From positions 64,001-128,000 of the forward strand of contig CAVOGR010000005.1 of NCBI GenBank assembly GCA_963695555.1: DNA of 64,000 bases. Reading direction: 5' to 3'. Below, piece after piece: positions 4,166 through 24,825 of the stretch (position 1 is the stretch's first letter; each line of letters starts with the position of its first letter). The position numbers and the translations under genes were made by a program. The notes beneath the pieces are model-generated. The model was not told the origin of the DNA. It was given only the letters and a program-made list of their open reading frames with translations, and ran no database searches. Origin of the DNA: an uncultured Gemmatimonadales bacterium (GTDB lineage: Bacteria > Gemmatimonadota > Gemmatimonadetes > Gemmatimonadales > GWC2-71-9).

Positions 4166-5342
4166 TTACGGTTGTCGACTCTCCTTCCGCCTGCTCATCA
4201 CCAACACCCGACCGACCTGTTTCTGCTTGCGATACCCCAACAAGTGAAACATCTGAAGCGCAACGAACCGGGCCACGCGCACGTCGATCACCAGCGTGTC
4301 GGCGAGGGTCGGGTGCCGGCGTACGCCGGGCAGCACGCGGAGCAGCTGTTCAGCGCGGGTATGACGCAGGATCCGCGACACGGTCAGCCAGAAGGGACTG
4401 AATTCCCGGATGACGAAGAAGCCATCGTCGCCCTGGGTCTGATAGAGCGGCATCAGAATCCGCCCGCCGGCGGGGGCATGGATGTCTCCCGACCGGTCCT
4501 CCGCCACCCACTCGCCTTGGGTCAGGGGTTGGAAGCTCTCGTATCCGGGCCGCATGCGAAACCGATCCTCCGGCTGGACAGGGTGGCGATACCGCACCTC
4601 GAACACCCGTGGCAGTCCTCGCCGGTTCTCTTCCAGCAAGCGTTGCGCTCGTTCGACTTCGGCCAACCGGTCGGCATTGGGCAACACGCCGCCGGCGGCC
4701 AGCGCAACCCAGACGCCGGCCTCCAGGAGATCGACTGAAGCGGGGTCTTCGTGGCGGCCGCCTTCGAACCCCATGGTGATGTAGCCGAGGCCGTTCAAGT
4801 ACTCGAGCAGGGTACCCTCGATGTGCTCTTCCAAGCCGAGGATGATCGGGGAGCGAAAGCGGAGGGCAAATGCGCGGTTTCGGAGCGTGTCGCCGACGGT
4901 GGCAAAGGCCGCACTCTTCCCCGAGGTCGTGTGGAGGTCGATGAAGAACGCACCGTGTTGCGCCCGGTCGAGTGCGGTTTCGATGGCTTCGAGCACGTCG
5001 ACCAGTTCCTGGTCTTCACTGATCGCCGGATCGGGCGGGTGACCGTTTCGGAGCGCTACGATGCGTTCGGGCTTGAAGTGTCGGTTGAGGTCGCGGTCGA
5101 TGGCCCGCTCGCCCCGGGCCAGCGCGGCCAAGTTGCCGGCCAACCCTAAGAATTCGCCCCAGATCGGAATGCGCCGGTCGTGGATCGTCTGGAAGATGCG
5201 CTCGAGCGCAGCCACACCCGCGGGCTCGTTGCCGTGCAGACCTGCCGTCGCCACCAACAGCGGGCCCGTGCGCGCGCCAACGATCCGGCCGATCAGCCGA
5301 TCGCGAAGCTGAAGGCCGGACCACAGCGGGTTCGGACGTCAC
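4166..5342 (-). CDS. Succinylglutamate desuccinylase/aspartoacylase (AstE/AspA, M14-like Zn hydrolase); apparent frameshift near the 5' end
   Basis: GLHGNEPAG, DRDLNR, IDLHTTS, FEGGRH, ILMPLYQ..G.DGFF; GTG at 5342 overlaps the upstream stop but is out of frame with ORF 4166..5257. Confidence 0.88.
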
Positions 5343-7258
5343 GAGTCTTCGTGGAGCTTGTCGTGCAGCAGGCGCTCGACCATGGGCATGAAGTCGCCGA
5401 CACTGACGATGCCGACGAGTTTACCGTCCTTTACGACGGGAAGGCTTGGAATCCGGTGCCGGCGCATGAGTTCGATGGCCTCAAGGGTGGAGGTTTCCGG
5501 ATCGACCGTTGCCGGGTTGGTGTCCATGATGTCCCTGACGGGAATGGTCAGCTTCCCTTCGCGGCGGTTGCCGCTCGCCAATAAACGTAACACCGATCCG
5601 AATGACACCAGCCCGATCAGGTGATGCTCGTCGTCCTCCACCGGGACCTGCCGGATATGCTTCCAATCCATGAGCAGGGCGGCCAGGTCAACCAGCTCGT
5701 CCTCCTTCACGGTAAAAAGGTCGGTCGTCATGTACTGCTCGACCTTCAAGTAGTGGTGCTTCCAGCCGCCGCCCTCGTCGATCGACGCGAGTTTCCACTC
5801 GTGACATGGCTTGCCGCTCTGCTGGCGGTGAGCGGTTGCGGCGGTGAGCGCAGCCAGCCGCTCGCTCCGGGTGCCCTGCGAGCCCATCTGTAAGAGTGAG
5901 CGCTCGAGCCAGTGGGCCCCGGTCCGGCCGGATGCGACGCGGCTTTCGATTGCGGTGAGATATCGGTCGGTGTCGCGCCGGGCGACACCCGCGCCCCTGA
6001 GCCCCGAGTAGGCCAGGGGAATCAGATCCTTCAGGATCAATTCCCGCGCACCCACCGTTTTCCCGTCCAGCCAGGTAAAGCCGACATTGAGGCCGCGGCG
6101 GGCCGCCGCCAGCACGTTGGCCCGAGCGTCATCGAACTGGATACGCTCGGTGATGTCGGGATACCGCTCCACACCCCCGAGAACGAGCCCGACCCAGAAG
6201 GCCGCGTTGGCCACCTCGTCGAACACGCTGGGGCCGGACGGAAGTACCCGGCACTCGATTCGGAGGTGAGGCACGCCCTGGCACACGCCATAACACGGGC
6301 GGTTCCAACGGTAGACTGTGCCGTTGTACAGCTGCAGGGCCGCGAGGGTCGGCACACCGCCCGCCCGGAGCACCTCGAACGGGTCCTCCGGGTTCTTCGT
6401 CGCCATCAGCGCCGGAATCCGGGCGATGTCCTCACGGAACACCTCGAGCACGGACTGCTTGATCCACTGCTCGCCAAATCGGACCCGTGGCGTGAGTTCC
6501 CTCAGGTGGGGCGTGGTGCGACGGGTGTCGATCGATTGTTGAAAGAGTGCGATGCGGGTCTCGGCCCAGAGCCGCCGGCCGAACAAGAGCGGGGAATTGA
6601 CGCTCGCCGCGAGCACGGGCGCGGTCATCACCTGTGCCACGTTGTAGGTGTGGGCGAAGGCGTCTGGATCGACCTGGAGGTGCACCTGGAAACTGGTATT
6701 GCCGCCCTCCAGCATCACCGAGTCGTGCTCCAGGTTGAGCTCGTCCGCTCCTTGGATGTTGATGCGATAGGTGCCGCCGCGAATCCGAGTGAGTACGTCA
6801 TTGAGGACGTGGTAGCGTTCGCGCGGCGTCATGTTGTCGAGCGACAGATCGGACTTGGCCAGGGTGGGGAGAATGCCCGTGAGCACCACGTCCGCCTGGT
6901 GCTGGTGGGCCTGTGCCCGAACGGCTTCGATGTGGGCGTTGAGCCGCTGTTCCAGTTCGTGGAAACAGCGGTCCGTGAGGTCGAGCGGGTCCAGATTGAT
7001 TTCGAGGTTGAAGGCCGCGAGCTCGGTGGTGTACTCCGGCCCGGCCAGCCCTTCCAAGACCCGGAGCGCCGTCGGCGCAGGCCGCCAGCCCCGGTCGACC
7101 AGAAACAATTCCTGTTCCGCGCCGATCCGGCGCCGGCCCGACTCGATCTGGCCCTGAGCCAGCATCTGCTCCAACGCGCGCAGGTCGTTGAGCAGCGCCT
7201 TGGTGAAAATGCGAAACTCGTCCGGGCCGAGTTTCGGCGCGACCTCTAGAGTTCCCAT
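5339..7258 (-). CDS. Glutamate-cysteine ligase family 2 (GCS2-like carboxylate-amine ligase) fused to a C-terminal CBS pair
   Basis: IGAEQELFLVD, TTELAAFNLEIN, NTSFQVHLQV, NSPLLFGRRLWAETRI, VYRWNRPCY, HLRIECRVLPSGP; CBS repeats (VEQYMTTDLFTV...; LPVVKDGKLVGIVS). Confidence 0.88.
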   Translation of the reverse strand: MGTLEVAPKLGPDEFRIFTKALLNDLRALEQMLAQGQIESGRRRIGAEQELFLVDRGWRPAPTALRVLEGLAGPEYTTELAAFNLEINLDPLDLTDRCFHELEQRLNAHIEAVRAQAHQHQADVVLTGILPTLAKSDLSLDNMTPRERYHVLNDVLTRIRGGTYRINIQGADELNLEHDSVMLEGGNTSFQVHLQVDPDAFAHTYNVAQVMTAPVLAASVNSPLLFGRRLWAETRIALFQQSIDTRRTTPHLRELTPRVRFGEQWIKQSVLEVFREDIARIPALMATKNPEDPFEVLRAGGVPTLAALQLYNGTVYRWNRPCYGVCQGVPHLRIECRVLPSGPSVFDEVANAAFWVGLVLGGVERYPDITERIQFDDARANVLAAARRGLNVGFTWLDGKTVGARELILKDLIPLAYSGLRGAGVARRDTDRYLTAIESRVASGRTGAHWLERSLLQMGSQGTRSERLAALTAATAHRQQSGKPCHEWKLASIDEGGGWKHHYLKVEQYMTTDLFTVKEDELVDLAALLMDWKHIRQVPVEDDEHHLIGLVSFGSVLRLLASGNRREGKLTIPVRDIMDTNPATVDPETSTLEAIELMRRHRIPSLPVVKDGKLVGIVSVGDFMPMVERLLHDKLHEDS

Positions 7259-8966: not shown

Positions 8967-8997
8967 GGGAGTAGGGAGTAGGGAGTAGGGAGTAGGG
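8967..8997 (+). repeat. Heptamer tandem repeat (GGGAGTA)x4.4
   Basis: Directly visible perfect repeat. Confidence 0.95.
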
Positions 8998-9066: not shown

Positions 9067-9117
9067 GCCGATGGCCGATGCCGATAGCTGATAGCCGATA
9101 GCTGATAGCTGATAGCT
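9067..9117 (+). repeat. Heptamer tandem repeat (GCYGATA) ~x7
   Basis: GCCGATG GCCGAT GCCGATA GCTGATA GCCGATA GCTGATA GCTGATA GCT. Confidence 0.93.
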
Positions 9118-9160: not shown

Positions 9161-9243
9161 GCCCGGGTGGCGAAATGGCAGACGCAAGGGACTTAAAATC
9201 CCTTGGGGGCAACCCCGTGCGGGTTCGAGTCCCGCCCCGGGCA
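9161..9243 (+). tRNA. tRNA-Leu (anticodon TAA), CCA not encoded
   Basis: Acceptor stem GCCCGGG/CCCGGGC-A, D loop GGCGAAATGGCAGACGC, anticodon arm AGGGA-CTTAAAA-TCCCT, long variable arm, T loop GGTTCGAGTCC. Confidence 0.97.
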
Positions 9244-9432
9244 TTGGTTGAGGGACGGCGACTTTACGGCCGCGCCGCAGGTTCCTTATTCGCAGTGATA
9301 TTTCCTCGGATGCGGTCCACCTCTGTGGGCCCCATGTGACCACGGACCACGACTCAAAGCGTCGTGCTCATCCCTCCGGGAACTGCCGCCGCAACCAGTC
9401 GCGGCTGCCGGGCTTCCTCCCACCTGCGCCAC

Positions 9433-9449
9433 TGGAGAGATACTCCCCA
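9433..9449. promoter_or_regulatory. Candidate upstream activator site for a sigma54 enhancer-binding protein
   Basis: Imperfect palindrome TGGAGA-GATAC-TCCCCA about 150-170 bp upstream of the -24/-12-like element. Confidence 0.35.
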
Positions 9450-9600
9450 CTGGGGTAGAATCGGCCGGTCGAGAACCGGCCCCTGGACGTCCTACCAGCT
9501 CTTCTGCTCGTCCCCACCGCACATCCTAAGTTCATACCCGATCTTGGTTTATCAGCACGAAGTGCATTTCCTTCCTTTGCGTTGGGCCCTGGAGTCCGAC

Positions 9601-9649: not shown

Positions 9650-9952
9650 ATGGTGCCACCGAACAGCGGGGTAAAAGGCGGTCTCTGTTCGACCTGCGAC
9701 AACGCTCCCACCTGCAGTTATCTGCGCTCGCGCAGATACCCGGTGCTTCAGTGCGAAGAATTTACGGCTTTCACGCCGCCTGACGTCAGGACGCGGCAGC
9801 CCAGTCGGCGCAGGCCCGAAGCGGACAATCCCCACATGTCGCCGGTGAGGCCGAACCACCTCCTCGGCCTCTGCGGCACCTGTGAGGAGTGGGAGACCTG
9901 CACGTACCCACGTTTCGAGGGAGGCGTCTGGCAATGTGAGGAGTATCACTAG
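9650..9952 (+). CDS. Small Cys-rich protein with two GLCxxC-x5-C...CEE(F/Y) repeats
   Basis: GGAGG RBS; GLCSTCDNAPTCSY...VLQCEEF and GLCGTCEEWETCTY...VWQCEEY. Confidence 0.78.
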   Translation: MVPPNSGVKGGLCSTCDNAPTCSYLRSRRYPVLQCEEFTAFTPPDVRTRQPSRRRPEADNPHMSPVRPNHLLGLCGTCEEWETCTYPRFEGGVWQCEEYH

Positions 9953-9994
9953 CTCGACGGCGGCTCGGATCGGAGGACTGAAGGGCGTGACCCG

Positions 9995-10847
9995 ATGACA
10001 ATGCGGATGAACCCGGAAGACGTATTTCAGATCGTCGACCGGCACAACGGGAGTCAGGGCGCACTCATCTCGATTCTCGAAGACGTGCAAGCGTCGTACA
10101 ACTACCTGCCCGAAGCGGCGCTCAGAATCGTTGCGGGGCGAACCGGGCGCTCGCTGGTCGACGTGTATGGGGTCGCGACGTTCTATCGGGGCTTCAGCCT
10201 GCAGCCCAGGGGCAAGCATCTGGTGACCGTATGCATGGGGACCGCGTGCCACGTGCGCGGTGCACGGGGCGCACTCAAGGGGTTCCAACGGCGACTCGGG
10301 GTGGACGCCGGCGGCACCACGAAGGACAGCGAGTTCTCCCTTGCCACGGTCAACTGTCTTGGGGCGTGCGCGCTCGCACCGGTGGCGGTTGTCGACGGGG
10401 AATATTTCCGAAACGTCAAGGAACGGGACGTCCCGGGCGTGCTCGACCGGGCCTCGCGGATCGATAGCGACCTTGCGTTGAGCAGCGACGAGCGGGTCTT
10501 CGGCGTGAGCGTGTCATGTCCCAACTGCAATCGAAGCCTGATGACTCATGAGCACTTGCTCGATGGACATCCGATGGTTCGGGTGACGGCCTCGTTCGGC
10601 CGAAAACACGGCTGGATTCGACTGAGCAGTCTGTACGGCGACTATCGGATCCGGAGTGAGTACGAAATTCCGCAAGGGTGCCATTGTTCACTTCTTCTGT
10701 CCCCGGTGCCACGCGGAGCTAAAGTCGGGGCGGCTCTGCCCTGACTGTGACGCACCCACGATCCTCCTGCTGGTCAGGGGTGGTGGGACGGTCCAGATAT
10801 GCTCGCGCCGCGGCTGCAAGCAACACCTGTTGGATTTGGGCTCGTGA
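9995..10847 (+). CDS. NuoE/HydC-like [2Fe-2S] subunit fused to a Cys-rich C-terminal domain (apparent frameshift ~10677)
   Basis: YNYLPE..L, VYGVATFY, CMGTACHVRG, CLGACALAP; then CPNC...CPRC...CPDC...CSRRGCKQH. Confidence 0.88.
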
Positions 10848-10911
10848 CGTCGCCGCGTTGGCGAAGAGTGGCGGGTGGGACAACCCGGCAACCGACGAGA
10901 CACACCGACTA

Positions 10912-13900
10912 ATGGCCAGACTCAGCACGATCGACGAACTGGAGGAACTGCGGCAGACCATCCGAGACGGTGAGGAGCGGCTTGGGCCGCGCATCACTGT
11001 CTGCGCGGGAACAGCGTGCCAAGCGAGCGGTGCGAACGACGTTCAACGCATCATCAAACGACACCTCATCGAGCACGATCTCGTTGATCGGGTTGCCCTG
11101 CGCATCACAGGGTGTCATGGGTTCTGCGAAATGGGCCCCTTCGTCGTGGCAGAGCCTCGGGCAGCCTTCTATCCCAAGATCCACACGGGCGATGTCGCCG
11201 CCATCGTCGATGCAGCACTCGCCGGCGAATGTGTCGAATCTTTGCTTTACCGAAACCCCTCGACGGGTGAACGCCTGCCGGTGTCTCGACGAGATCCCGT
11301 TCTTCGCCAAGCAGAAGCGCGTGCTCTTGGCGAGAAACCAAGCGGTCGATCCCATCCGGTTGTTCGACTACATCGCCCGTGGCGGCTATGAGGCGCTGGT
11401 CAAAGCCCTGACGGAGTACACCCCTGAGGGCATCATCGACCAAGTCCGGCGCTCCGGTCTGCGGGGCCGGGGGGGGCGGGGTTCCCCACGGCCGAGAAGT
11501 GGGAGGCAGCCCGCCAACGAGACGGTACCGACGGCAAGTATGTGGTGTGCAATGCGGACGAGGGCGATCCCGGTGCCTACATGGATCGCAGCATTCTCGA
11601 GGGCAATCCCCACTCCGTGATCGAAGGCATGATCATCGGCGGCCTGGCCATGGGCGCGACCGAGGGATTCGTCTTCGTGCGACACGAGTACCCCCTGGCC
11701 ATCAAGCACCTGCTCATCGCGCTCAGGTTGGCACGGGAATTCGGATTACTCGGTGAGCACATCCTGGGCACCGGGCTCGACTTCGACATCAACATCGTCA
11801 AGAGCGCCGGTGCATTCGTGTGTGGTGAAGAGACTGCCCTCATCCGCACCATCGAAGGTGCCGTGGGCGAGCCACGGCAGCGACCGCCGTTCCCAACCGA
11901 TAAAGGCATCAACGGCAGACCCACCTGCATCAACAACGTGGAGACATGGGCCAACGTGCCCATCATCATGACCCAGGGCGGCGACGCCTACGCGCGGGTC
12001 GGAACCCCGACCAGCACCGGCACGAAGGTCTTCTCGGTCGTCGGGAAGATCAGAAACACGGGCCTGGTCGAGGTACCGATGGGAACCTCGATACGGGAGA
12101 TCGTCTACGACATCGGCGGCGGACCGCCGGACGGTGGCCGGATCAAGGCGGTCCAGATCGGTGGACCGTCCGGCGGATGCATTCCGCATTGGCGCTTCGA
12201 TCTCCCGATCGACTACGACAGCCTGAAGCAGGTCGGCGCCATCATGGGGTCGGGTGGCATGATCGTGATGGACGAGAGCACCTGCATGGTGGACGTGGCC
12301 AAGTACTTCATGGGCTTTCTCAAGGACGAGTCGTGCGGCAAGTGCTACCCGTGCCGCAAGGGCACCCAGCGGATGTGGGAAATCCTCGATGACATCACAC
12401 AAGGGAAGGGTACAGTCGCGCACCTGGACCTCCTCGAGGAGCTCGGCCAGACCGTGGCCGATGCGAGCATGTGCGGGCTGGGCCAATCGGCCGCCAACCC
12501 GGTCCGCAGCACGCTGCGGTACTTCCGGGGCGAGTACGAGCGGCACGTGATCGACGGCGTGTGCGACGCCCATGTCTGCAAAGGGCTCACGGGCGCACCA
12601 TGCCAATCGGCCTGTCCAGTCGGCACGGAGGCGTGGCGCTACGCGGCGCTCATCGCGCAGGGCGAGTACGAGGAGGCGTATCGAGTCATTCGGAAGTCGA
12701 ATCCGTTCCCCTCCGTGTGCGCCCGGGTGTGTGACCACAAGTGCGAGCAGCATTGCCGGCTCGGGACCACGGGACAGGATCCCGTCGCGCTCCGGGCCCT
12801 CAAGCGGTTCATTACCGATCGCGTCGATCCGACCACGTACCAGCCCGAGCGGCACACCGCCGCCGCCGTGCCGGGCAAGAAGATCGCGATCGTTGGGGCC
12901 GGCCCCGCGGGCCTGACTGCGGCGCACAACCTCTCGCTCAGAGGCTACCGGTCAACCGTCTTCGAGGCTGCGGACCATCCGGGAGGCATGCTCGTGCAGG
13001 GCATCCCCAGCTTCCGCCTGCCGCGGGAGGTCGTGCAACAGGAAATCGACGCGCTGATCGATGAGAACATTACGCTGCGTTGCGGCATGGCGTTGGGCCG
13101 GGGCTTCACGGTCGACAGTCTGTTCGAGGATGGCTACGACGCGGTATTCCTGGCCCTGGGTGCCCACGAGAGTTGGCGCATGAATATCCCGGGCGAGGAT
13201 CTGGCCGGCGTCCACGCCTCCATGGAGTTCCTGAAAGCCTGGAATATGCGCGGCGAATCCGTCGCGCACGGCAGGGTCGGAGTCATCGGTGGGGGCAACT
13301 CGGCTATCGATGCCGCTCGCGTGGCTCGGCGTCAGGAAGCAGTATCCGAGGTCACCATCTTCTACCGCCGCACCCGCATGGAAATGCCCGCCTTCGCCGA
13401 GGAAATCGATGGAGCCCTCGAGGAAGGCGTCCAGCTGGAGTTGTTGGTGTCGCCCGTGGCCCTGGTCGGCGAGGACGGACACCTGACAGCGGCCGAGTTC
13501 GTCGTCAACGAGCTGGGTGAGATAGACAAGAGCGGGCGGCGCACGCCGACCGCCAAGCCTGGATCCGAATACCGCGTGCCGCTGGACACCCTGATCGTCG
13601 CCATCAGTGAAGCGGCGAGCGATGTCGGAGCCGGGCACATCTCCGGCCTCGAGTTGAGAGATGGCATGGTGGCGGTCGATCGACGCACCCTTTGCACCGG
13701 ACGGCCCGGGCTCTTCGCCGGTGGTGATGTAGCCTCGGGGCCAAACACAGTCATTGATGCCATCGCGGCCGGAAGACGGGCCGCCGACGTCATCGAGCGG
13801 TATCTCCAGGGACGAGACCTGGTGGCGCCCGCCGAGCCCCGCCTGCCGACGGTCTACGTCGCACCGATGGTCGACCAGCCGGAAGACAGCGGCGCGCGCG

Positions 13901-14084
13901 AAGGGTTCTTGTGCCGGTTCGATCCCCGGAACAGCGTCGGCACTCGTTCGTCGAAGTCGAGGAAACGCTGACACCCGAGGATGCCATCCGGGAGGCCAGG
14001 CGGTGCCTGCGGTGCGACCTGGAGTTCACGAGCTGCCCGGAGGCTGAAGAGGCCTTCCGAGGGCCTGGCAGAAGCCATCGATGA
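10912..14084 (+). CDS. NuoF/HydB-like NADH/FMN subunit fused to a GltD/NfnB-like FAD-NAD(P)H module (apparent frameshifts ~11280, ~11480, ~13900)
   Basis: [67 protein letters not shown]; then [53 protein letters not shown]. Confidence 0.9.
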
Positions 14085-14812
14085 TTACGCTGACCATCAA
14101 CGCGGTGACCGCGCACGTGGAGGGCGGGACGACGCTGCTCGAGGCGGCGCAGTTCCTGGGGTTCCCGATCCCGACGCTGTGCCACATGGAAGGGCTGTCG
14201 CCCTACGGGGCGTGTCGCCTGTGCGTCGTGGAGATTGGCGAGGGAGCCAAGTCGAGATTGGTCAGCGCCTGCACCTACCCCGCCGAGGAGGGACTCGCGG
14301 TTCGCACCGCCTCGTCACGGGTGGTGAGAACCAGGAAGATGATTCTCGAGCTGTTGCTGGCATCCTGCCCGCAGTCGAAAACGATTCAGGATCTTGCGGC
14401 AGCTCACGATGTGCGACAGCAGCGGTTCCGACAGGAATACGAAGACTGCATCCTGTGCGGGCGCTGCGTCCGGATGTGCGAGGAGCAGATGATGGCCAAG
14501 GCCATCGGTTTTCGCGGACGGGGCGAGCAGCGCAGCATTGGCACCCCGTTTGACGCCAAGTCCGACGTCTGCCGGTTGTGCGGCGGCTGCCTCTACGTGT
14601 GCCCGGTTTGTGAACTGCGGTGTACCTACGCGGAGCCGGAGAAGGCGATCTGTGGCGGCTGCGCCAATCTGAGTCCTCCGTGCCTCGATGGGCACGAGTT
14701 TGATGACATGATGTGCTATATGAATCCCTGCGCCGCCTGTGAGATCGTGCACCGCCAAGGGGCGGACAAAACGTCTAAGGAGACCGGCGATGTCGCTGTC
14801 CAGAGTGAATAG
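14081..14812 (+). CDS. NuoG/HydA N-terminal-like FeS subunit ([2Fe-2S] + 2[4Fe-4S]) with Cys-rich tail, no catalytic domain
   Basis: IPTLCH...GACRLCVVE...SAC; CILCGRCVRMC; CRLCGGCLYVCP; tail CGGC...PPC...MMC...PCAAC. Confidence 0.88.
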   Translation: MITLTINAVTAHVEGGTTLLEAAQFLGFPIPTLCHMEGLSPYGACRLCVVEIGEGAKSRLVSACTYPAEEGLAVRTASSRVVRTRKMILELLLASCPQSKTIQDLAAAHDVRQQRFRQEYEDCILCGRCVRMCEEQMMAKAIGFRGRGEQRSIGTPFDAKSDVCRLCGGCLYVCPVCELRCTYAEPEKAICGGCANLSPPCLDGHEFDDMMCYMNPCAACEIVHRQGADKTSKETGDVAVQSE

Positions 14813-16373
14813 GTCAGCAGCAACCCTCACCAAGAACCGAACGGACGGTTCGGTGTCCCCCATCTCGGGGATGTGCGTCACTTGCGTCGATGGTTGCATC
14901 GGTATGTGCGAGATCGGCAAGTCTGCCTTCCGCGGCCACGAAGTGATCTACCCGCAACCGTTCGGCGTCATTACCACCGCGTCCGAGAAGGACTACCCCG
15001 TCGATTACTCGCACATCAACATCATGGGCGGTGTGGTGGGAGCGCAGGGCATCGAGGCCGACAGTGACCTGGCCGTGTTTCCCAATGTGAATCTCGAGGT
15101 GCGGTTCGGCCACGACCAGGGGCTCAAGTTTCGGTATCCCTGGATCATCCCGGGCATCGGATCTACCGACGTGGCCAAGAACAACTGGGAGGGTCTGGCT
15201 ATCGGCTCGGCCCTGGCCGGAACGGGACTGACGATTGGTGAGAACGTCACAGGGATGGACCCTGCCTCGGTGATCGAGGGCGGACACGTCGTCGACACCG
15301 CGGACCTCAAGCGGCGCGTCAAGCTGTACCAGGAGCATCAGCGGGACGGCTACGGCGCCATCGTGGTGCAGACCAATGTCGAGGGCACGCGTCTGGGTGA
15401 GCACGAGTACGCGATCAACACCCTCGGGGTCGAATGCGTCGAGATCAAGTGGGGGCAGGGTGCCAAGAATATCGGCGGGGAAGTCAAAATCAAGGATCTC
15501 AAGAAGGCCCAGATGCTGCATGAGCGCGGCTACATCGTCCTTCCCAATCCCACGGACCCCGCGATCATCAAGGCGTTCAAGGCCGGCGCGTTCAAGGAAT
15601 TCGAGCGGCACTCTCGCGTCGGCATGGTAACCGAAGAGGCATTTGCGGAGCGAGTCGCATACCTGCGCCGCTTGGGCGCCAAGTACGTCTTCCTCAAGAC
15701 CGGTGCCTATCGGCCCGCGGCGCTGGCGCAGGCCCTGGCGTACGGGTCCAGGTACGGAATCGACCTCGTGACGGTGGACGGAGCCGGCGGTGGCACGGGC
15801 ATGAGTCCCTGGCGGATGATGAACGAATGGGGTGTCCCGGTGGTCGAACTCCACTCACTGCTCCACCAGTATGCTGCGCGCCTGGCCGCCAAGGGCCAAC
15901 CAGTCCCGGCACTGGCGCTGGCCGGCGGTTTCACCTTCGAGGACCAGATCTTCAAGGGCCTGGCTCTCGGGGCACCGTTCGTGAAGCTGATCGGCATGGC
16001 GAGGAGCCCTCTGGCGGCGGCCATGGTGGGGAAGACCATCGGGAAGGCCATCGATGCGGGGCAGATCCCCGTATACGTAGAGCGTTTTGGCCGCACCACT
16101 GATGAGATCTTTGTCACCGCTCACACGCTACGCGACGAGTTGGGTGACGATGAATTCGAGAGGCTCCCGACCGGCGCCATCGGTCTCTACACCTACTATG
16201 AGAGACTGGCCCAGGGCCTCCGGCAGCTCCTGGCGGGCAGCCGGAAGTTCTCGCTCGACCACATGTCCCGGGACGATCTGGCCGCGCTCACGCCGTTGGC
16301 CGCACAGGTCACCGGTCTGCCTTATGTCATGGATGTGGACATGGGGCAGGTCGACGCCATCCTGGGCGTGTAG
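14790..16373 (+). CDS. Stand-alone FMN-binding glutamate synthase family protein
   Basis: AAGGAG RBS; N-terminal CVTCVDGCIGMC; EIKWGQGAKNIGGE, LKTG, TVDGAGGGTGMSP, AGG...FKGLALGA. Confidence 0.85.
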   Translation: MSLSRVNRSAATLTKNRTDGSVSPISGMCVTCVDGCIGMCEIGKSAFRGHEVIYPQPFGVITTASEKDYPVDYSHINIMGGVVGAQGIEADSDLAVFPNVNLEVRFGHDQGLKFRYPWIIPGIGSTDVAKNNWEGLAIGSALAGTGLTIGENVTGMDPASVIEGGHVVDTADLKRRVKLYQEHQRDGYGAIVVQTNVEGTRLGEHEYAINTLGVECVEIKWGQGAKNIGGEVKIKDLKKAQMLHERGYIVLPNPTDPAIIKAFKAGAFKEFERHSRVGMVTEEAFAERVAYLRRLGAKYVFLKTGAYRPAALAQALAYGSRYGIDLVTVDGAGGGTGMSPWRMMNEWGVPVVELHSLLHQYAARLAAKGQPVPALALAGGFTFEDQIFKGLALGAPFVKLIGMARSPLAAAMVGKTIGKAIDAGQIPVYVERFGRTTDEIFVTAHTLRDELGDDEFERLPTGAIGLYTYYERLAQGLRQLLAGSRKFSLDHMSRDDLAALTPLAAQVTGLPYVMDVDMGQVDAILGV

Positions 16374-16556
16374 CCGGCAGGCGTCTCGTGTTGGAGCCGT
16401 TCCTCGGTGCCCAAGGATCGACTACGTTTGTCGTCAGCCGAGCGACGGTGGGCCGGCCAGAGTGCAGGTGCGGACAGCGAGACTCCGTGATCCCTGGCCG
16501 ACATCCATCGATTAACGCCCAGGCTGGGCACCGAGCCGAGATGGAGCAGGGGGGAC

Positions 16557-18267
16557 ATGCAGACGACCGGGCGGCCTTTGAGGAGTTTCGAACTCTCGCG
16601 CCGGATAGTGAATCTGGCGAATCAGGCGATCCCGCGAGTCGAGTTCTTGAAGGGTCTGTCGGACCTCCTGCTGCAGTACTCGGATTGCGACGGGCTCGAG
16701 ATCCGGGTCCACGGCCAGGTGGAGTATCGGGCGCGGGCGACCGCCAGGCCCGAGCGATCATTTCGCTTCGAACCCTCCAGCGCTGACGGACCGAGGGATG
16801 ACCCAGAGCCGCTCGTCGAGATCGACCGATCCGACCTCGGGCGGCTCGTGCGGGACGAACTCGAAGGGAAGCTGGCTCTCCCGTCGCAGTGCTTTACGCC
16901 GTACGGCAGTTTCTGGACCGGGGATATGGCTGAGACGGTGGGACCGTACTCGTCTCGGCAATCCGCCGAATCAGGCAGCTCCCGCATCGCCTCAATGGCG
17001 CTCGTTCCCTTCGTCATCGATGACAACAACTTCGGCATCCTGCAGCTTGAATGTGCGCAGCGGCATGCGTTTGCCCACGACACGATTGAGCTGTACGAGG
17101 CCCTGGTGGAGACAGTCGGGTTCGCGATCGCTGAGCGGCGGGCACGAGCCGGCACTGAGGGAGCGCGTCAAGGAGCTGACGTGCCTCTACCGCATCGCGC
17201 GGGTGATCGAGGAAAGCGGAGACAGTCCGGAGGCAGCCCTCAGTCGGATCGTCGAGGCGCTGCCGGCCGCGTGGCAGTATCCCGAGTTGGCGGTGGCTCG
17301 AATTGTCCTCGACGAATCGGAGCACGTGACGGGCGACATCGAGGCGACCTACGTGCGGCAGGTTGCGAACATCGTCGTGAACGGAGCCTGTCGTGGGACG
17401 ATCGAGGTCGGATACGTCCAGGAGGTACCATACGGCGTGAGCGAGCCCTTCCTGCAAGAAGAAGAGCACCTGATCAACGCCGTCGCGAGGGAGATCGAGG
17501 AGTTCGTCAAGCGCCGCCAAGCCTCCGCGGAACGATTACTGTTGGAGCAGCAACTTCGTCACGCCGACCGATTGGCCACCATCGGCCACTTGGCCGCGGG
17601 CGTCGCGCACGAAATCAACGAGCCGCTCGGCGGCATTCTGGGATTTGCACAGCTAGCCCGAAAGGGCTCCGCGGTGACGGAGAGCACCGCGAACGACCTG
17701 GATAGGATCATTGCCTCCTGTCTCCAGGCTCGGGAGATCGTCAACAAGTTGAAGCTCTTTGCCCGACAAGCGCCCATCCAAAAGACGAGGGTGTCGCTCG
17801 CCGACATCGTCCAGGATGCCTGCTCGTTGGTGAGGGGTCGGTGTGCGACTCAGGGCATCGATATCGTGACCGACTTCGATGCTGAGTTACCCACCGTGCC
17901 CGCGGATCCACTTCAACTCAAGCAAGTACTCGTTAACCTGGCTGTAAACGCGGTGCAGGCGATGCCGGGCGGGGGCGTGCTGACGGTCGCAACGCGCCTG
18001 GACGGCCACACAGCCGTCATCGGGGTCCAGGATACCGGCGTCGGGATGGCCGAGGACATCCTGGCGAAGATCTTCAGTCCGTTCTTCACGACCAAGGACG
18101 TTGGCGAAGGGACCGGCCTGGGTCTGTCTGTGGTACATGGAATCGTCACGGCACATGGCGGCACAATCGACGTTGTGAGTAAGAGTGGCAACGGTGCCAA
18201 GTTCGTTGTGCGACTGCCACTCTCGGCCACACCGGGGGGCCGGGTGGGTCAGGAGACCAAGCCGTGA
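16557..18267 (+). CDS. Cytoplasmic sensor histidine kinase with GAF-like input domains (apparent frameshift ~17147)
   Basis: LRERVKELTCLY linker; H box LAAGVAHEINEPL; QVLVNLAVNAVQAM; DTGVGM; FSPFFTTK; GTGLGL; no clear TM helix. Confidence 0.9.
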
Positions 18268-19604
18268 GCGGCCAGAAGGAACGGATCCTGGTCGTCGATG
18301 ATTCACCCGACGCACGGGAGGTGCTCAGCCGCAACCTGATAGCGGAAGGCTATCACGTGATGACCGCGCCCGGCGTGGCGGAAGCCACCGGGATTCTCGA
18401 GGCGACACCCGTGGACCTCGTCATCACCGATCTCAAGATGCCCAAGGTCGGCGGGATTGACCTGATCCGGCACGTGCGGGCACGGTTCAAAGAAGTTGGG
18501 GTCATCATGATCACCGGCTATGCCTCCATCGAAACGGCCGTGACGGCGGTAAAGGAGGGAGCCGAGGACTATCTCGCCAAGCCGTTCACCGACTCCGAAC
18601 TCCTTGCCGCGGTGCGCGATGCTCTTCAGAAGGCACGCTTTCGACGCGCAGCGAACTCCTACGGCGGAACGGCACCAATCCATGCTGTTGGGCTGGTCGG
18701 CGAATCCGAGGCGATGCAACGGGTCTATGATGCACTGGTGAAGGCCGCGTCTACGCCATCGACTGTGCTCATCACCGGCGAGAGTGGCACCGGGAAGGAG
18801 CTGGTGGCCAGAGGGATTCACTACCACGGATCACGGGCTCGGGCGCCCTTTGTGCCCATCAACTGCGGCGGTATACCGGAAGGTTTGGTGGAGAGCGAGC
18901 TGTTTGGTCACGTCAGAGGCGCGTTTACCGGGGCCACAACCTCGCGGGCCGGCTTCTTCCAGGCGGCGGACGGCGGCACAGTCTTCCTGGACGAGATCAG
19001 TGAGACCAGCCTGGCCATGCAAGTCAAGCTCCTTCGAGTGCTTCAGGACAAGGAGATCCGTATGGTCGGTGGCACTCAGCAACTGAAGGTCGACGTGCGC
19101 GTCATCGCCGCCACCAACAAGAACCTGCTCGACCTGGTTCGCAGACAGTTGTTCCGTGAGGACCTGTATTTCCGAGTCAACGTGATCCCGATCGACGTTC
19201 CGCCCCTGAGGGACCGGGACGACGACGCCATCCTCCTCGCGCGACACTTCGTCCTCAAGTACTCCGACGAGTTGGGCAGGGCACCACCGCAGTTCTCTGA
19301 CGGCGTCCTGGATGCGTTCCGTCACTATCACTGGCCGGGAAACGTGCGCGAATTGGAAAACGTGATTCACCGGCTCCTGGTCTTGAGCGAAGGCGGTGTC
19401 GTAGATATCCCCGACTTGCCGGCAGTGATGCGCTACTCGGTCGGGAGCGGCGTCGGCCGGAACTGCACGCTGGCCGAAATCGAGGCCGAGCACGTGCGTA
19501 ATGTCCTGGCAAGCGTGGACGGCAACAAGACGCGAGCCGCTGAGATTCTCGGCATTGATCGCAAGACATTGCGAGAGAAGCTGAAGCGCACTTCGATGGG
19601 CTGA
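18264..19604 (+). CDS. Sigma54-dependent response regulator (NtrC/AtoC family)
   Basis: REC (ILVVDD...TDLKMP), [36 protein letters not shown], Fis-type HTH. Confidence 0.95.
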
Positions 19605-20188
19605 AGAGCCCTGCCCCGGGATAGAGCCGAACCGTCCATTCTTCGGTCGCACGTTGGTAGGCCGGCCAGATGGGTCCCGATCCCGTCCGGCAGGCTCGGA
19701 GCGAGAACACGATGCTGTCCCCGACGAGCAGGCCCTCGCCCCGCGGCACGACACCGACGCGCACGCGCTCGAGGCGGAAGTGTGCACGCTCCTTGGGATC
19801 AGCGGCGCTATCGGATTCGGGCTCGACAGGCTCATGGTCTCGCGCAATCAAGACCAACACCGGGGAGGAAGTCCGCCGTGGATGATGTGGAGGTCCTGAG
19901 CTGACCCCCACAAAGCCGCGTCCCGCCCCGCCCCGGGCATTGGTTGAGCTCTGGCGCGTTCCGGAGTGCAACGGTAGCAACGGCCCTGCTTCAGACACAG
20001 CATTCTGTCGCGTGTTGCAGCGCGGGAAACTTCCACGCTGCGTCAAGGCGGGCTGGGACCAGCCGGGACCGTTCCCCGCAGTGTCGTAACTCCTGGCGAG
20101 GGCGGCTCGTATGGATAAGGTGAGAGGATCTTTCGAGTTGCCCTGCAATACGCCGTGAGACAGAGCCCGGGAAAGGAGTGTCGGCGGA

Positions 20189-20659
20189 ATGCCTCCATAC
20201 TCTTTGATCATCAACGGCCGGCAGCTGGACGTTGACGCCCCCGCGGAAAAGCCCCTCCTTTGGGTGCTCAGGGAGGATTTCGGACTGAAGGGCACCAAGT
20301 ACGGTTGCGGAGTAGGGATCTGCGGAGCATGCACGGTTCACCTCGACGACGAGCCGATTCGATCCTGCGTGACCCAGATTGCCAGCGTTGCGAATCGCTC
20401 CGTTATTTCAATCGAGGGCCTCTCCCCGGACGGAACGAACCCCTTGCAACTCGCGTGGGTTGAACGGGACGTGTCCCAGTGCGGCTACTGTCAGGCCGGT
20501 CAAATCATGTCTGCCGCAGCGCTGCTCGCCCGCACCCCATCGCCAACGGATGAGGATGTCGACAGGGCCATGTCCGGAAACCTGTGCCGGTGTGGGACCT
20601 ATCGCCGCATTCGGGCGGCCATCCACCAGGCCGCCGAGCTGAAGAGAGAGGAGGGATGA
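20189..20659 (+). CDS. Molybdo-hydroxylase small [2Fe-2S] subunit (IorA/CoxS-like)
   Basis: [34 protein letters not shown]. Confidence 0.93.
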
Positions 20660-22857
20660 CAATGGTGACTCGGCGCGAGTTCATCCGCGTGACGGCGGTG
20701 GCAGGAGGTGGTTTCCAGCTGGCCGTGGCACTCCCCGCCCGGCTTTGGCGGATGGCAGGAGCCCTCCCCACTGCCGAGCTCACAGTTTTCGTCCACATCG
20801 GCACCGACGACATCGTCACGATCACCGTGCCCCGACCCGATATGGGCCAAGGTGTTCGGACCTCGCTGCCCATGCTCATCGCCGAAGAGCTGGATGCTGA
20901 CTGGTCCCTAGTCCGTATCGAGCAAGCCGACCTGAACGAAAGCAGGTACGGGAGCCAGTACTCGGGAGGAAGTCACAGCATCTGGGCGAGCTGGGTGCCT
21001 CTGCGGCGGGCTGGTGGCACGGCACGGTGGATGCTGGTCGAGGCGGCTGCGCGCCGGTGGGGCGTGGGAGCCTCGCAGTGCGAGACCGGGCCGGGCGTCG
21101 TGCGCCATCCCCCCAGCGGCCGCACCGCCCGCTACGGCAGTCTCGCGGCTGAAGCAGCGAACCTCCCGGTTCCCGACGATCCACCGCTCAAGGATCCAGC
21201 CGAGTTTCGCATCATCGGTCACGCTACCGGCAACGTAGACGCCCCCGACATAGTGGTCGGGTCGGCCGTCTTCGGGTTGGACGTGGAGCGCCCCGGCATG
21301 CTGCGAGCGGTAGTCGCGCGGTCGCCGGTATTCGGCGGAAGGCTAGTATCGGTCGATCCGTCAGCAGCGCTGGCTGTTCCAGGGGTACGGGACGTTATCG
21401 AGGTGCCCGGAAGTACATTTCGAAGGCCACGCAACGAGCCCCTCGTCCCAGACGGCGTCGCCGTTGTGGCGGACAGCGTATGGGCGGCGCTACAGGGACG
21501 AAAGGCGCTGCGCGCGGAGTGGGAATCCGGCTCAGGATCCGCCGAGAGCACCGAGGCGTTCTGGGCGCGCTGCGAGGAGGCTGCCTCGAGGCCGGACCCA
21601 ACGGTGGTACGACAGGACGGCGACGTCGCAGCTGCCCTGAATGACGCAGCCCGGAGAGTGAAGGCCGTATACCGGCTCCCCTTCCTGGCGCACGCACAGA
21701 TGGAACCGTTGAACTGCGTCGCCGAGGTCTCACGGGCTGGGTGCGAGATCTGGGCGCCAACGCAGAATCCAGCTGGCGCCCGCGAAGTTGCGGCTGCTGT
21801 CACAGGGCTCCCCCCCGACATGATCCAGGTGCACGTGATCCGATCGGGAGGCGGTTTTGGCCGGCGCTTCTACGGCGACTACGTCGCGGAGGCCGTGTTC
21901 TTGTCGAGCGCCGTAGGTGCCCCGGTCCAAGTCGTCTGGACCCGGGAAGACGACATGCGCCATGGCGCCTATCGTCCGGCCGGCTTCTATGCGATTGAGG
22001 GTGGGCTCGACGAGGCGGGGAACATCGTCGCATGGCACGATCATCTGGTGAACGCGAGCCGGGACAGATCTCTAGGGATGTCCCGACCAGAACGATACGC
22101 AGGTCAAATGTATGAGTACGCGTTCCCGATGGGCTTCATCCCAAACGTTCGCCTCGAATACACGGAAGTAGACAGCGTGATACCCCGCGGTCAGTGGCGC
22201 GCGATAGAGGACTCGTCGAATGTCTTCGTCCTCCAGAGCTTCCTTGACGAGCTCGCTCGCGCCGCGGGTCGCGACCCGGTCGAGATGCGCCTGTCCATGC
22301 TGGGCGAGCCGCGCGGCGTACCCTACTGGGGCGGGACCTACGACACGGGCCGCTTGCGTGGCGTGTTGGAGACCGCGGCGGCCGCCGCGGAATGGGGAAG
22401 GCGACCCCCGGAAGGAGTCGGGCGCGGCATTGCCGCGAGCTACGCGAATAACGCGTATGTCGCCCACGTGGTGGACGTCGCGCTCGATGACGTGGGGGAG
22501 GCGCGTGTGCTGCGGGTAGTGTCGGCCGTGGATTGTGGACGAGTCGTCAATCCCAGCGGAGCCGAGGCTCAGGTCGAGGGGTCGATCGTCTTCGGGCTCA
22601 CGGCTGCCCTGTACGGCCGAATTACCGTGGATGGGGGCAGCGTTACGGAGAGCAACTATCACGACTACCCTCTGATGCGGCTCAACGAGACCCCACAATT
22701 CGATATCCACTTTATCGAGTCGCAGGCCGCGCCGTCAGGGATCGGGGAGGGAGCCCTGCCACCCATCGCTCCGGCCCTTACGAACGCCATCTACAATCTG
22801 AGCGGAGTCCGCATCCGTACCCTGCCACTGGCGGGACAGCAGCTCCGCAGAGCGTGA
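20656..22857 (+). CDS. Molybdopterin-binding subunit, isoquinoline 1-oxidoreductase beta-like (IorB), Tat signal
   Basis: TRREFI Tat motif; [38 protein letters not shown]. Confidence 0.92.
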
Positions 22858-23070
22858 GCGGTTGCAGGCGACCATTTGCCCGGAACAGCGACCGAACGGT
22901 GCGACGACATCCTCATTGGCCCGACAGGAGCACGTCATGCGAATTCCCAGGTGCCCGTTCGTGTCCAATCTCCTCGCACCGATGTTCTCGAGCCGCTCTC
23001 CCCGATCAATCGTGATGTCGTGGCGACGGTGCGGAAGCAACGCGCGCCTCATGGCGACGAGTAATCAGAG

Positions 23071-24234
23071 ATGGAGCCCGATATGAAACTCCTGCTGTTC
23101 ATCATTGTCACTATGTGGGCGGCCGTTCACACGACATCGAGCTTTCAAAGAGTCATTGGAGGCCCTGATTTCGACCGGGGAGTCTTTGTCAGCCCTACCA
23201 GCGACGGAGGCTACGTCGCGGTTGGCGTAACCAGAAGTTTCGGCGCGGGTGGCGAAGACATCTACCTGGTCAAGACTGATGCCACAGGGAATGTGCTGTG
23301 GACCCAAGCGTACGGTGGCCCTAAGGAGGACAATGGCTGGTCGGTCCACGAAAGCGCCGGGAGTTTGGTCCTCGCAGGCTTCACCGAGAGCTTTGGCGCG
23401 GGCGGATTCGATTGCTACCTGGTCAAGACGAACGGCGAAGGGGCCATGCAGTGGTCGAAGACGTACGGCGGCGTAGGCAAGGACCGGTGCTGGGGCCTCC
23501 TGCCTACGAGTGACGGAGGCTTTGTCCTCGTCGGGGAGACCACCAGCTCTGGCAGCGGGGCAGAGGACTGCTACTTGATCAAGACCGACGCATCAGGCAC
23601 CGAAGTGTGGTGGAAGACCTACGGTGGTGACAAGAGCGATCGGTGCTTTTCGATCGCCCAGGCGGACGATGGGGGTTTCCTCCTAGCGGGACAGACGTAC
23701 AGTGAGGGCGCCGGAGATCGAGACGTCTATCTCATCAAGACCGACGCATCAGGGATGCAAGAATGGTCGAAGACGTTCGGCGGGGCAGCCTCTGATGTAG
23801 GACACTCGGTGACCCGAACTACCGAGGGCGACTTCGTCGTGACCGGCTACACCACGAGCTTCGCCATCGCTGAGGACGATCCCTACCTCATCAAGATTGA
23901 CGCCACGGGCCACACTCTATGGACGCGTGTGATTCCGATGGAAGGAGTCAACCATACCTTGACAGGAGAGCAGACAACCGACGGTGGGTTCATCCTCGGT
24001 GGATTGGCCGAGTTTCGAGCGACAGGGGGAAGCGGAGCGCTCCTGGTCAAGACCGATGCAGAGGGCAATCTCGAGTGGTCGAGGGACATTTTTCAAACGA
24101 CGACCGGCGGGAGTGTGGGCTATACCGTCCGGGCCACGCCCGATGGGGGCGGCATCCTGACGGGCCACACGACCGAAGGGAGCGCGGGAGATGTGGACCT
24201 CTTCATGGTCAAGGTGGACGGCGAAGGCCAGTGA
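23071..24234 (+). CDS. Secreted repeat protein (probable beta-propeller)
   Basis: Hydrophobic N-terminus; about 7 repeats of T.DGG(Y/F)..AG.T.S......D.YL.KTD..G...W.KTYGG. Confidence 0.85.
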   Translation: MEPDMKLLLFIIVTMWAAVHTTSSFQRVIGGPDFDRGVFVSPTSDGGYVAVGVTRSFGAGGEDIYLVKTDATGNVLWTQAYGGPKEDNGWSVHESAGSLVLAGFTESFGAGGFDCYLVKTNGEGAMQWSKTYGGVGKDRCWGLLPTSDGGFVLVGETTSSGSGAEDCYLIKTDASGTEVWWKTYGGDKSDRCFSIAQADDGGFLLAGQTYSEGAGDRDVYLIKTDASGMQEWSKTFGGAASDVGHSVTRTTEGDFVVTGYTTSFAIAEDDPYLIKIDATGHTLWTRVIPMEGVNHTLTGEQTTDGGFILGGLAEFRATGGSGALLVKTDAEGNLEWSRDIFQTTTGGSVGYTVRATPDGGGILTGHTTEGSAGDVDLFMVKVDGEGQ

Positions 24235-24247
24235 TGAGTAGGCGCCC

Positions 24248-24670
24248 GTGAGAATAGGTGCTGGTCCCGCGGTTCTCCTCGTTGCCTCGACTGCTTGCAG
24301 CAACGCGGCACCTCACGATCCGTGCAACCCCATCGATCCGGTGCTGGCCAAGTCGTCATTTGTCGCCGTCATCGGACCGACGGCAGGTCAGCGGTCCGCG
24401 AGTCCCCTCCAGGTGCGCGGGTGCTCGCGGACCTTCGAATCCAACGTCGTCTGGGAACTCCGATCGCGGGATGGGAGCGTCCTCGCCTCAGGCCACACCT
24501 CTGGCGGCGGAGCCGAGGGAGCGGCGGAGTTCAGGTTCACTGTTTCGTTCACCGTCTCCGCACCGGAGCTTGGTCATCTGGAGGTGTTCGAACCCGACGA
24601 GTCGGACGGTGAGGGCTATCCCGGGGGGCGTTCCACCATTCCCGTCATTCTTCTGCCGAACCCCGAGTAG
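24248..24670 (+). CDS. Lipoprotein with Gmad2-like immunoglobulin domain
   Basis: Lipobox-like STA-C; SPLQVRGCSRTFESNVVWEL...G.LEVFE. Confidence 0.75.
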   Translation: MRIGAGPAVLLVASTACSNAAPHDPCNPIDPVLAKSSFVAVIGPTAGQRSASPLQVRGCSRTFESNVVWELRSRDGSVLASGHTSGGGAEGAAEFRFTVSFTVSAPELGHLEVFEPDESDGEGYPGGRSTIPVILLPNPE

Positions 24671-24825
24671 ACCGCCGCCAGGCATTGGCAGTACGCGCGC
24701 GTGACGGCGGTTCGGCGGGGGCGGTCGACTTGGCTAGGTTGGGCCGCCCTTGCGTAACCCCAGCCACTTCTCACATTCCCCCTCGAAGGCTATTCACCCC
24801 ACTCCCAACTCCCGGTCACGATCCC

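Follow-up and report, generated by a model that had tools for sequence, protein, structure and literature searches.

What does an electron-transfer module of the NuoEFG type accomplish when the only candidate substrate-converting enzyme encoded beside it is an orphan relative of glutamate synthase? This question is raised by a gene cluster in a stretch of 64,000 nucleotides (henceforth the window; positions 64,001 to 128,000 of contig CAVOGR010000005.1, GenBank assembly GCA_963695555.1) from an uncultured Gemmatimonadales bacterium. A reading made from the sequence alone had described five co-oriented genes followed by a sigma-54 two-component system, and our open reading frame (ORF) listing and family scans recover precisely this arrangement, with all seven genes on the forward strand (window coordinates; lengths in amino acids, aa; G002 is a genome of the same genus):

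9650..9952, +, Cys-repeat protein, 100 aa, with two CxxC-x4/5-C-x8/14-C repeats
9995..10847, +, BfuC/NuoE-like [2Fe-2S] subunit with a Cys-rich C-terminal extension (PF01257; 283 aa in G002)
10912..14084, +, BfuB fused to a GltD/NfnA-like flavin adenine dinucleotide (FAD)-NADPH domain (1056 aa in G002)
14081..14812, +, short type-2 BfuA, 243 aa (by its Cys pattern and a PDB match to WorA)
14790..16373, +, GltB-like flavin mononucleotide (FMN) TIM barrel, 527 aa, the proposed catalytic subunit (PF01645, hhalign and AlphaFold2 model)
16557..18267, +, GAF-domain histidine kinase (569 aa in G002; ORF and family scans)
18264..19604, +, NtrC-type sigma-54 response regulator (446 aa in G002; ORF and family scans)

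The operon presents a type-2 Bfu architecture to which a subunit resembling glutamate synthase is added and in which the ferredoxin/NADPH arm is exchangeable; it is real, widespread and apparently undescribed. We hold it to be probable that BfuABC, with or without the fused GltD domain, forms one complex with the FMN protein. Somewhat less confidently, we favor the glutamate/2-oxoglutarate pair as its substrate; indeed, the glutamate chemistry suspected from the sequence alone remains the best-supported function, given the homology to GltB and the nitrogen-gene neighbors described below.

The electron module displays most of the features that define the Bfu family. BfuC is recovered by PF01257 with 151 bits, its C1 [2Fe-2S] motif, as specified in Schut 2022, is present in 58 of 60 relatives, and its Cys-rich extension is seen in 57 of the 59 homologues longer than 200 aa. 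BfuB (best PDB match 7t2r_B, E 1.6e-197) is organized as a thioredoxin-like domain, FMN/NADH domain, SLBB, B1 and B2/Zn site, followed by the GltD-like domain. Its NADH and FMN motifs are of the bifurcating type and, like its B2 ligands, agree with Suppl. Figs 9-10 of Schut 2022; these ligands (C458, H545, C551, C556) are retained in 45/45 fused and 13/13 canonical BfuB proteins. Residues 558-1036 have as their best PDB match the NADPH module of StnC/NfnA (8oh5_C, 9n5u_A). This GltD-like domain shows eight conserved Cys together with GxGxxA and YRR motifs, the former having been proposed as a marker of NADP(H) binding (PMC7483475). Among the 75 typed loci of the 80 nearest, the BfuB C-terminus is a canonical B3/B4 domain in 13 and GltD-like in 62; on a tree of BfuB cores (97 rows) this state changes 15 times, with well-supported branches forcing at least 8 and a shuffled mean of 28, and hence the arm has been swapped or lost repeatedly. 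In the window and in G002 the GltD-like domain stands in place of the B3/B4 ferredoxin domain. The window form thus falls outside the strict Bfu definition, which its B3/B4-bearing relatives satisfy in that feature, and, as the ferredoxin-binding domain is absent, coupling to ferredoxin appears unlikely in this copy.

BfuA retains the A1 [2Fe-2S] and the A2 and A4 [4Fe-4S] sites with no A3, which is the type-2 pattern, and its best PDB match is WorA (9mqx_A, E 1.2e-44). Its C-terminal tail bears 8 further conserved Cys, 7 invariant and 1 at ≥90% in an alignment of 65 sequences; in the type-2 design, extra subunits feed A4. The gene had earlier been taken for the N-terminus of NuoG alone: a short BfuA is indeed what is found, but a BfuA free of a catalytic domain is normal for type 2 (WorA, BamI). 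The AlphaFold2 model of BfuA has a predicted local distance difference test (pLDDT) value below 50 over the cluster-binding half, and a complex prediction for the FMN subunit with BfuA scored 0.00, which is uninformative either way.

The sole Pfam match of the FMN protein is PF01645 (Glu_synthase; 45 bits, cut-off 20.4), and no match to FMN_dh (PF01070) was obtained at E 0.01. In hhalign it aligns with four canonical or YerD-like GltB2 rows over 330 columns (98.8%, E 1.4e-16). Nothing significant was found among PDB sequences, and the corresponding profile search matched designed TIM barrels and reached GltB only at E 0.28. AlphaFold2 confidently models the protein as a TIM barrel with a pLDDT of 90.5, although the N-terminal Cys region and two loops are less well predicted. 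Structure alone does not set glutamate synthase apart from hydroxy-acid oxidases and type-2 isopentenyl diphosphate isomerases but sequence does, and by that measure the protein is a distant relative of GltB. Its E151, Q194, K220, Q223, K226 and K303 correspond to E886, Q909, K931, Q934, K937 and K999 of Azospirillum brasilense GltB (residue numbers counted by hand in the alignments), and all six are invariant in 41 near homologues. We take these residues to serve in FMN/2-oxoglutarate binding, a role for which literature searches gave no source. The GGTG-x-SP loop (residues 334-340) and the EIKxxQGAK motif, both of GltB type, are likewise kept. The [3Fe-4S] motif of the synthase domain is missing, the aligned region having no Cys, and an N-terminal CxxCxxxCxxxC motif is invariant in the 41 near homologues. 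With the queries used, searches of the operon, the 80 nearest loci and the genome (87% complete) detected neither a glutaminase (GATase II) nor a GXGXG part.

Conservation and nitrogen-gene context

The FMN protein has relatives in at least 599 GTDB stretches and matches at least 7999 database proteins; that homologous clusters might already exist in databases had been allowed for in the sequence-only reading. Our locus counts rest mainly on the 80 loci nearest to the window among these stretches. The gene immediately preceding the FMN gene is BfuA in 78 of the 80, and the other two loci end within 130 bp, so that the synteny with NuoEFG-like genes on which the sequence-only reading had staked its case holds. 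These loci come from Planctomycetota, Zixibacteria, Ignavibacteria, Acidobacteriota, Deltaproteobacteria, Alphaproteobacteria and others, with the closest homologues in metagenome-assembled genomes of Gemmatimonadota. Across 166 loci graded by identity, the Bfu link is seen in 125/129 at ≥62%, 3/30 at 50-61% and 0/7 below that, and the four unlinked loci of the first class have less than 210 bp of upstream DNA. In a FastTree phylogeny of 164 rows (two incomplete or stop-containing rows dropped; the six most distant rows served as the root, for which a long-branch warning was raised), all Bfu-linked FMN proteins but one separate case fall in a single clade (130 rows, Shimodaira-Hasegawa support 94), i.e., two changes, which points to one main origin of the link. 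The BfuB and FMN tree distances are correlated (r 0.66, kin not being independent). In the window the BfuA and FMN genes overlap by 23 nt, as had been remarked, but this is a lineage-specific trait: a gap of zero or less occurs in only 3/74 measured relatives, most of which have ~15-45 nt.

Neighbor clustering over the 80 loci returned the Bfu genes, the Cys protein (49), a regulator (41), a kinase (38), glutamate dehydrogenase (GDH) and PPDK_N proteins as recurring families. The same clustering found no H-cluster, NiFe or molybdenum/tungsten (Mo/W) unit conserved with the operon, in agreement with the earlier remark that no such unit is attached. An IorAB-like Mo-enzyme pair at 20189-22857 was considered as a catalytic partner and rejected because it lies outside the repeats that bound the operon (see below), and is absent from the site in G002, and because an IorB-like match is near the operon in only one of the loci listed. 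Sigma-54 sites precede the operon in 24/53 relatives versus 2/1060 shuffles, suggesting that it is inducible; a sigma-70-like site at 9433-9461 in the window is at chance level. The kinase-family homologue is usually upstream of the operon in relatives, and the two-component genes are downstream in the window.

The nitrogen-related surroundings are most apparent around homologues that stand alone. Their neighbors include GAF-ANTAR regulators, NrpR, GlnA, GDH, split GltB, carbamoyl-phosphate synthase, PurF and CTP synthase, and at least one of five markers (GDH, GlnA, NrpR, ANTAR, split GltB) is near 20/32 stand-alone and 17/46 Bfu-linked metagenome loci, with the caveats that the markers were chosen after the neighbors were known and that the contigs are often short. 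Beside the Bfu-linked form, GDH is the most frequent of the nitrogen genes, being near 8/80 nearest loci and 12/46 metagenome loci; about 1.7 would be expected among the 80 from the GDH density of the window genome (Poisson p 3e-4, kin not corrected). In an independent class-wide set of ten stand-alone copies none has Bfu genes and two are head-to-head with NrpR, one of the two sitting 2 kb from gltBD. A Methanococcus maripaludis transposon preprint names canonical split GltB only.

Several additional features of these gene families were noted. The stand-alone homologue EAL2_RS12730 of the cultured Peptoclostridium acidaminophilum (L123 10001-11521, NZ_CP007453.1) adjoins a small FMN-binding protein. 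Some genomes combine a Bfu-linked and a distant copy of the FMN gene or have two copies in tandem (G373, C1:1963680 and C1:1097550; L157; L147), and three full-length homologues (P0132, P0155, P0163) are without QGAK and/or GGTGMSP and are possibly inactive paralogues. A second PF01645 protein of 536 aa (G000 C1:1025613-1027223) has an N-terminal Rieske-like Cys/His pattern and is not a classical GOGAT, and a 2-oxoacid oxidoreductase gamma-like subunit (family read from sequence) is fused to a GltD-like domain at G000 C2:499493-501742. The middle domain of the kinase (17160-17540) recurs at the N-terminus of PPDK_N proteins with 27-40% identity; these are encoded right after the operon, downstream of the FMN gene, in seven loci (L011, L028, L039, L049, L057, L062, L069), and PPDK_N proteins are near 11/80 loci overall. 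It is possible that the shared domain is a common sensor for one signal. The 100-aa Cys-repeat protein has no family in a Pfam/NCBIfam scan, and its neighbors in an Atlas search were only hypothetical proteins. Its two Cys repeats are kept in 42/43 homologues, and it is possibly a metal-binding accessory or regulator. It is conserved chiefly alongside sigma-54-regulated forms, duplicated in L045, L049 and L076, and placed downstream in L020.

The proposed reaction and its rivals

We tentatively propose, at a likelihood just short of even, that the complex catalyzes ATP-independent reductive amination of 2-oxoglutarate with free ammonia, drawing on NADH together with ferredoxin or, in the window copy, together with NADPH. 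A single soluble Fe-S flavoenzyme would join the type-2 Bfu module to the GltB-like FMN subunit, which would furnish the site for the third substrate. NADH would be oxidized at the FMN of BfuB, and a second donor of lower potential would enter at the BfuB C-terminus; in the canonical form this would be reduced ferredoxin, by way of B3/B4, and in the window form NADPH, by way of the fused FAD/2[4Fe-4S] GltD domain. Electrons would then travel along B1-A1-A2-A4, the Cys-rich tail of BfuA and the N-terminal 4-Cys cluster of the FMN subunit to its FMN, where the imine arising from 2-oxoglutarate and free ammonia would be reduced to glutamate. By combining NADH with a stronger donor, the enzyme could assimilate ammonium below the limit set by NADH alone, sparing the ATP cost of the glutamine synthetase-glutamate synthase (GS-GOGAT) route. 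Alternatively, the fused form may do no more than accept NADH as well as NADPH, or it may add NADH to economize on NADPH.

The 2-oxoglutarate/glutamate couple has an E0' of -140 mV; assuming 1 mM 2-oxoglutarate and 50 mM glutamate, we computed its potential as -279 to -368 mV at 1 mM to 1 µM ammonium, and the ammonium at equilibrium as ~1 mM with NADH, ~30 µM with NADH plus NADPH, ~0.2 µM with NADH plus ferredoxin and ~1 µM with NADPH. Because the couple thereby occupies the mid-potential slot of the Bfu enzymes at low ammonium, confurcating reductive amination is favored for the B3/B4 form.

Several observations weigh against the proposed reaction or its confurcating wiring. NADPH alone nearly matches NADH plus ferredoxin and exceeds NADH plus NADPH as a reductant, so that confurcation would offer no thermodynamic gain in the fused form; HydB without B3/B4 is reported as non-bifurcating (PMC11406978), and strict confurcation in the NADPH form is, in our estimate, doubtful. 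The broader concept of a third ammonium-assimilation route beside GDH and GS-GOGAT, glutamine-free, ATP-free and confurcation-driven, with a repeatedly swapped ferredoxin/NADPH arm, we likewise consider rather unlikely to hold in all its parts. All four B5 Cys, present in the window and G002, occur in only 10/59 BfuB sequences (G002 included); on this point, B5 is reported as dispensable in T. sibiricus NfnABC and its ligands as degenerate in StnB. The best sigma-54 site of the window copy scores 8/12 and is not a good one, and stand-alone genes show no enrichment of NrpR operators in their upstream regions (3/31 vs 115/1550). Large GltB is present in 9/53 carriers (50 of the 80 loci and 3 relatives), but within one class the carriers do not clearly exclude it (5/12 vs 95/139, Fisher p 0.11). 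The queries used found neither a large GltB nor a match to a GltB1-type amidotransferase or to GXGXG in the window genome (87% completeness), which already holds GlnA and several GDH-family genes.

These alternative routes to glutamate in the host also favor a variant in which the same complex acts on a different substrate, such as another 2-oxo acid/amine pair (N-alkyl amino acids being one example), a hydroxy acid or the substrate of an unrelated flavin reaction. The FMN protein is only 23% identical to canonical GltB2; hydroxy-acid oxidases and type-2 isopentenyl diphosphate (IPP) isomerases (IDI-2) fill its top 50 fold matches (Z 25.6-26.7), among which glutamate synthase does not figure, though it is not thereby excluded; and Foldseek interleaves glutamate synthase with both. 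Moreover, GltB R957 has no clear equivalent in the alignments (that of K937, K226, is kept), and invariant motifs such as FERHSR and WRMMNEWG are without a GltB counterpart. Against this stand the exclusive Glu_synthase match with no FMN_dh hit, the two GltB-type motifs and the recurrence of glutamate and glutamine genes as neighbors, and we judge a different substrate improbable. To a comparable degree we disfavor the catabolic direction, wherein the complex would oxidatively deaminate glutamate in amino-acid-degrading sediment bacteria and pass the electrons to NAD+/NADP+, possibly with a pull from co-oxidation of ferredoxin or NADPH. Peptoclostridium acidaminophilum and Acetoanaerobium, which have stand-alone homologues, are amino-acid fermenters. 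The prominence of GDH beside the Bfu-linked form and the upstream sigma-54 sites would also suit such a role, and Bfu enzymes are reversible (PMC9304861). However, with the canonical wiring glutamate would have to be the reductant for NAD+ and ferredoxin (mean potential -390 mV), for which ammonium must be at ~0.2 µM, and the NrpR, ANTAR and GlnA genes beside the stand-alone forms indicate assimilation.

A more radical departure would dispense with the single complex: BfuABC::GltD would be an NADH/NADPH transhydrogenase-like module, or the partner of a hydrogenase or formate dehydrogenase encoded elsewhere, with the FMN enzyme merely co-regulated and using free ferredoxin, as its stand-alone relatives probably do. 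Such Bfu-free homologues account for 27/30 loci at 50-61% identity and 10/10 of the independent set, the GltD domain is closest to the Stn/NfnABC NADPH module, and elsewhere the genome has genes for proteins of the NiFe-hydrogenase and molybdopterin families, a 1001-aa NuoG/FdhA-like protein among them. Yet these hydrogenase- and formate-dehydrogenase-like genes are not conserved with the operon, whereas the BfuA-FMN adjacency is fixed across many phyla with both BfuB forms, the link has one main origin on the tree, and BfuA carries its own conserved Cys-rich tail. The correlated BfuB and FMN distances, subject to the kinship noted above, run the same way, and the ferredoxin form without the FMN protein would have no third substrate. 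We give this possibility little credence. Least credible of all is a glutamine-dependent glutamate synthase that would receive its amidotransferase and GXGXG subunits in trans: split GltB genes are near 4/32 stand-alone homologues and archaeal GltS is encoded as separate domains (PMC8097209), but no such subunit is found near the 80 nearest or the 46 Bfu-linked metagenome loci, nor did the queries used find a match in the genome at its 87% completeness.

If reductive amination by one complex is correct, electron bifurcation would extend into the nitrogen assimilation of many uncultured sediment bacteria, and a function would be gained for thousands of proteins labeled "FMN-binding glutamate synthase family protein". 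In the window form in particular, a Bfu-type enzyme would draw on two nicotinamide pools for amino-acid synthesis and make no use of ferredoxin. The natural pairs of BfuB proteins with a B3/B4 or an NADPH/FAD end also offer a direct probe of the role of B3/B4 in the unsettled Bfu mechanism. For annotation, the operon genes should not be labeled hydrogenase, complex I or classical GOGAT.

The tRNA-Leu islet

The operon and its two-component system lie within a 10.7-kb islet delimited by the following features:

9161..9243, +, tRNA-Leu(TAA), an integration hotspot (ARAGORN)
9231..9252, +, left att-like repeat at the tRNA 3' end (exact 22-bp match)
19927..19948, +, right att-like repeat at the end of the islet (exact 22-bp match)

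The 22-bp repeat is exact and has two copies genome-wide, and its 21-bp core (9232-9252 and 19928-19948) found a match in 0/100 shuffles, which upholds the earlier view of a gene set enclosed by att-like repeats. An empty site, in which the tRNA directly adjoins the flanking gene, is seen in the same-genus genome G003, and G001 has three att copies with different cargo at the tRNA. The description as island-borne is thus right as to the repeats and the empty site, but the islet has no integrase of its own (no PF00589 match in the window; six elsewhere in the genome), is no clear compositional outlier (GC 0.637 vs 0.651, with 9% of 693 windows equally low; tetranucleotide distance matched or exceeded by 13% of 178 windows, not significant), and such carriage is not a property of the system. 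Given the lack of an integrase in the window and the unremarkable composition, it is an old accessory islet at a tRNA hotspot, which accounts for the arrival of the operon and not for its function. The FMN gene has a strong match in 7/61 close genomes and 5/301 across the phylum (the window's own counted). A version with 63-64% identity is present in five genomes of a single genus belonging to this order, and other phyla have versions with 76-80%, which suggests separate acquisitions.

As read, the islet contains five 1-bp indels, at 10675 (BfuC), 11272, 11477 and 13895 (BfuB) and 17151 (kinase). Every ORF is intact in G002 (100, 283, 1056, 243, 527, 569 and 446 aa; 301 mismatches to the window over 10,510 columns), and the indels are missing from short-read contigs, all five in run X1, four each in X3 and X4 and two in X2 among the rows displayed. 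Hence, the frameshifts that the sequence-only reading had wished to polish are assembly or sequencing errors and not decay. The runs matching the islet are labeled as estuary or sediment metagenomes. Three RNA libraries contain it, but their contigs are flat in depth and cover the flanks as well, so that DNA carry-over is possible and they were not used as evidence of expression.

Around the islet, a second one (19949-24690) comprises the IorAB-like Mo enzyme, just beyond the right repeat and with a twin-arginine-like start, a repeat protein and a small possible lipoprotein; it ends at a degenerate att copy (~24674-24690), is absent in G002, and is skipped (19942-24809) by contigs of two runs. 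Positions 4600-7975 of L114 (G001:C283) hold three tandem att-like copies, placed between the tRNA and the flanking gene, in an islet array with different cargo and with no integrase among the genes compared. Heptamer-type short repeats upstream of the tRNA (8967-8997 and 9080-9116) have many copies in same-genus genomes. Outside the islet, at 4166-7258 on the reverse strand, a GCS2 glutamate-cysteine-ligase-like protein with CBS domains is followed by an AstE/AspA-family deacylase.

Comparison with known systems

Full-text literature searches, which largely leave subscription journals uncovered, found no description of the operon, in line with the earlier statement that no characterized enzyme has such an architecture. 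The word "glutamate" is absent from the main text of PMC9304861; since 17 BfuB clades are left unassigned there, the B3/B4 form could sit among them unnamed. The third substrates listed for the Bfu family in the Schut 2022 supplement include no amino acid or imine.

The closest parallel is with the type-2 Bfu enzymes, of which the nearest solved example is WorABCSL of Acetomicrobium mobile (PDB 9MQX; PMC12318220, PMC9304861). The operon shares with them the BfuC C1 site, the FMN/NADH motifs, B1 and B2/Zn ligands of BfuB, the A1, A2 and A4 set without A3, and a separate catalytic subunit within the operon. It differs in that its partner is a GltB-like FMN barrel, outside the 12 types of Schut 2022 Suppl. 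Table 1, in that a GltD-like domain replaces B3/B4 in the window and most typed nearest loci (62/75), and in the extra Cys-rich tails on BfuC and BfuA, with B5 ligands often incomplete. Stn/NfnABC (8OH5, 9N5U, 9BOV; PMC7483475, PMC12018979) likewise unites NuoE-, NuoF- and NuoG-like parts with a GltD-like NADPH/FAD domain and, in StnB, has degenerate B5 ligands. There, however, the GltD domain is in the A subunit, on the mid-potential arm, and B3/B4 are kept on B, whereas here the domain is on BfuB in place of B3/B4, BfuA is only 243 aa long and an extra FMN enzyme follows.

With the synthase domain of GltS (GltB, Fd-GltS and archaeal GltB2; PF01645; 1EA0, 1OFD) the FMN protein has in common the TIM barrel, the FMN-pocket residues and the EIKxxQGAK and GGTGxSP motifs, and a GltD-type NADPH module is encoded in the same operon. 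It departs from GltS in its 23% identity, in being without the glutaminase, central and GXGXG parts, and in having an N-terminal 4-Cys motif in lieu of a C-terminal [3Fe-4S] Cys motif; moreover, GltD is here fused to BfuB and is not a free beta subunit. The FMN hydroxy-acid oxidases and type-2 IPP isomerase share the FMN TIM-barrel fold (Z ~26, root-mean-square deviation ~3 Å over ~300 residues), but at 12-16% identity, with no FMN_dh match and with GltB-type motifs in the operon protein. Thus, judged by its encoded parts, the window copy is Bfu-like on one side and like the synthase half of GltS on the other, a strict member of neither.

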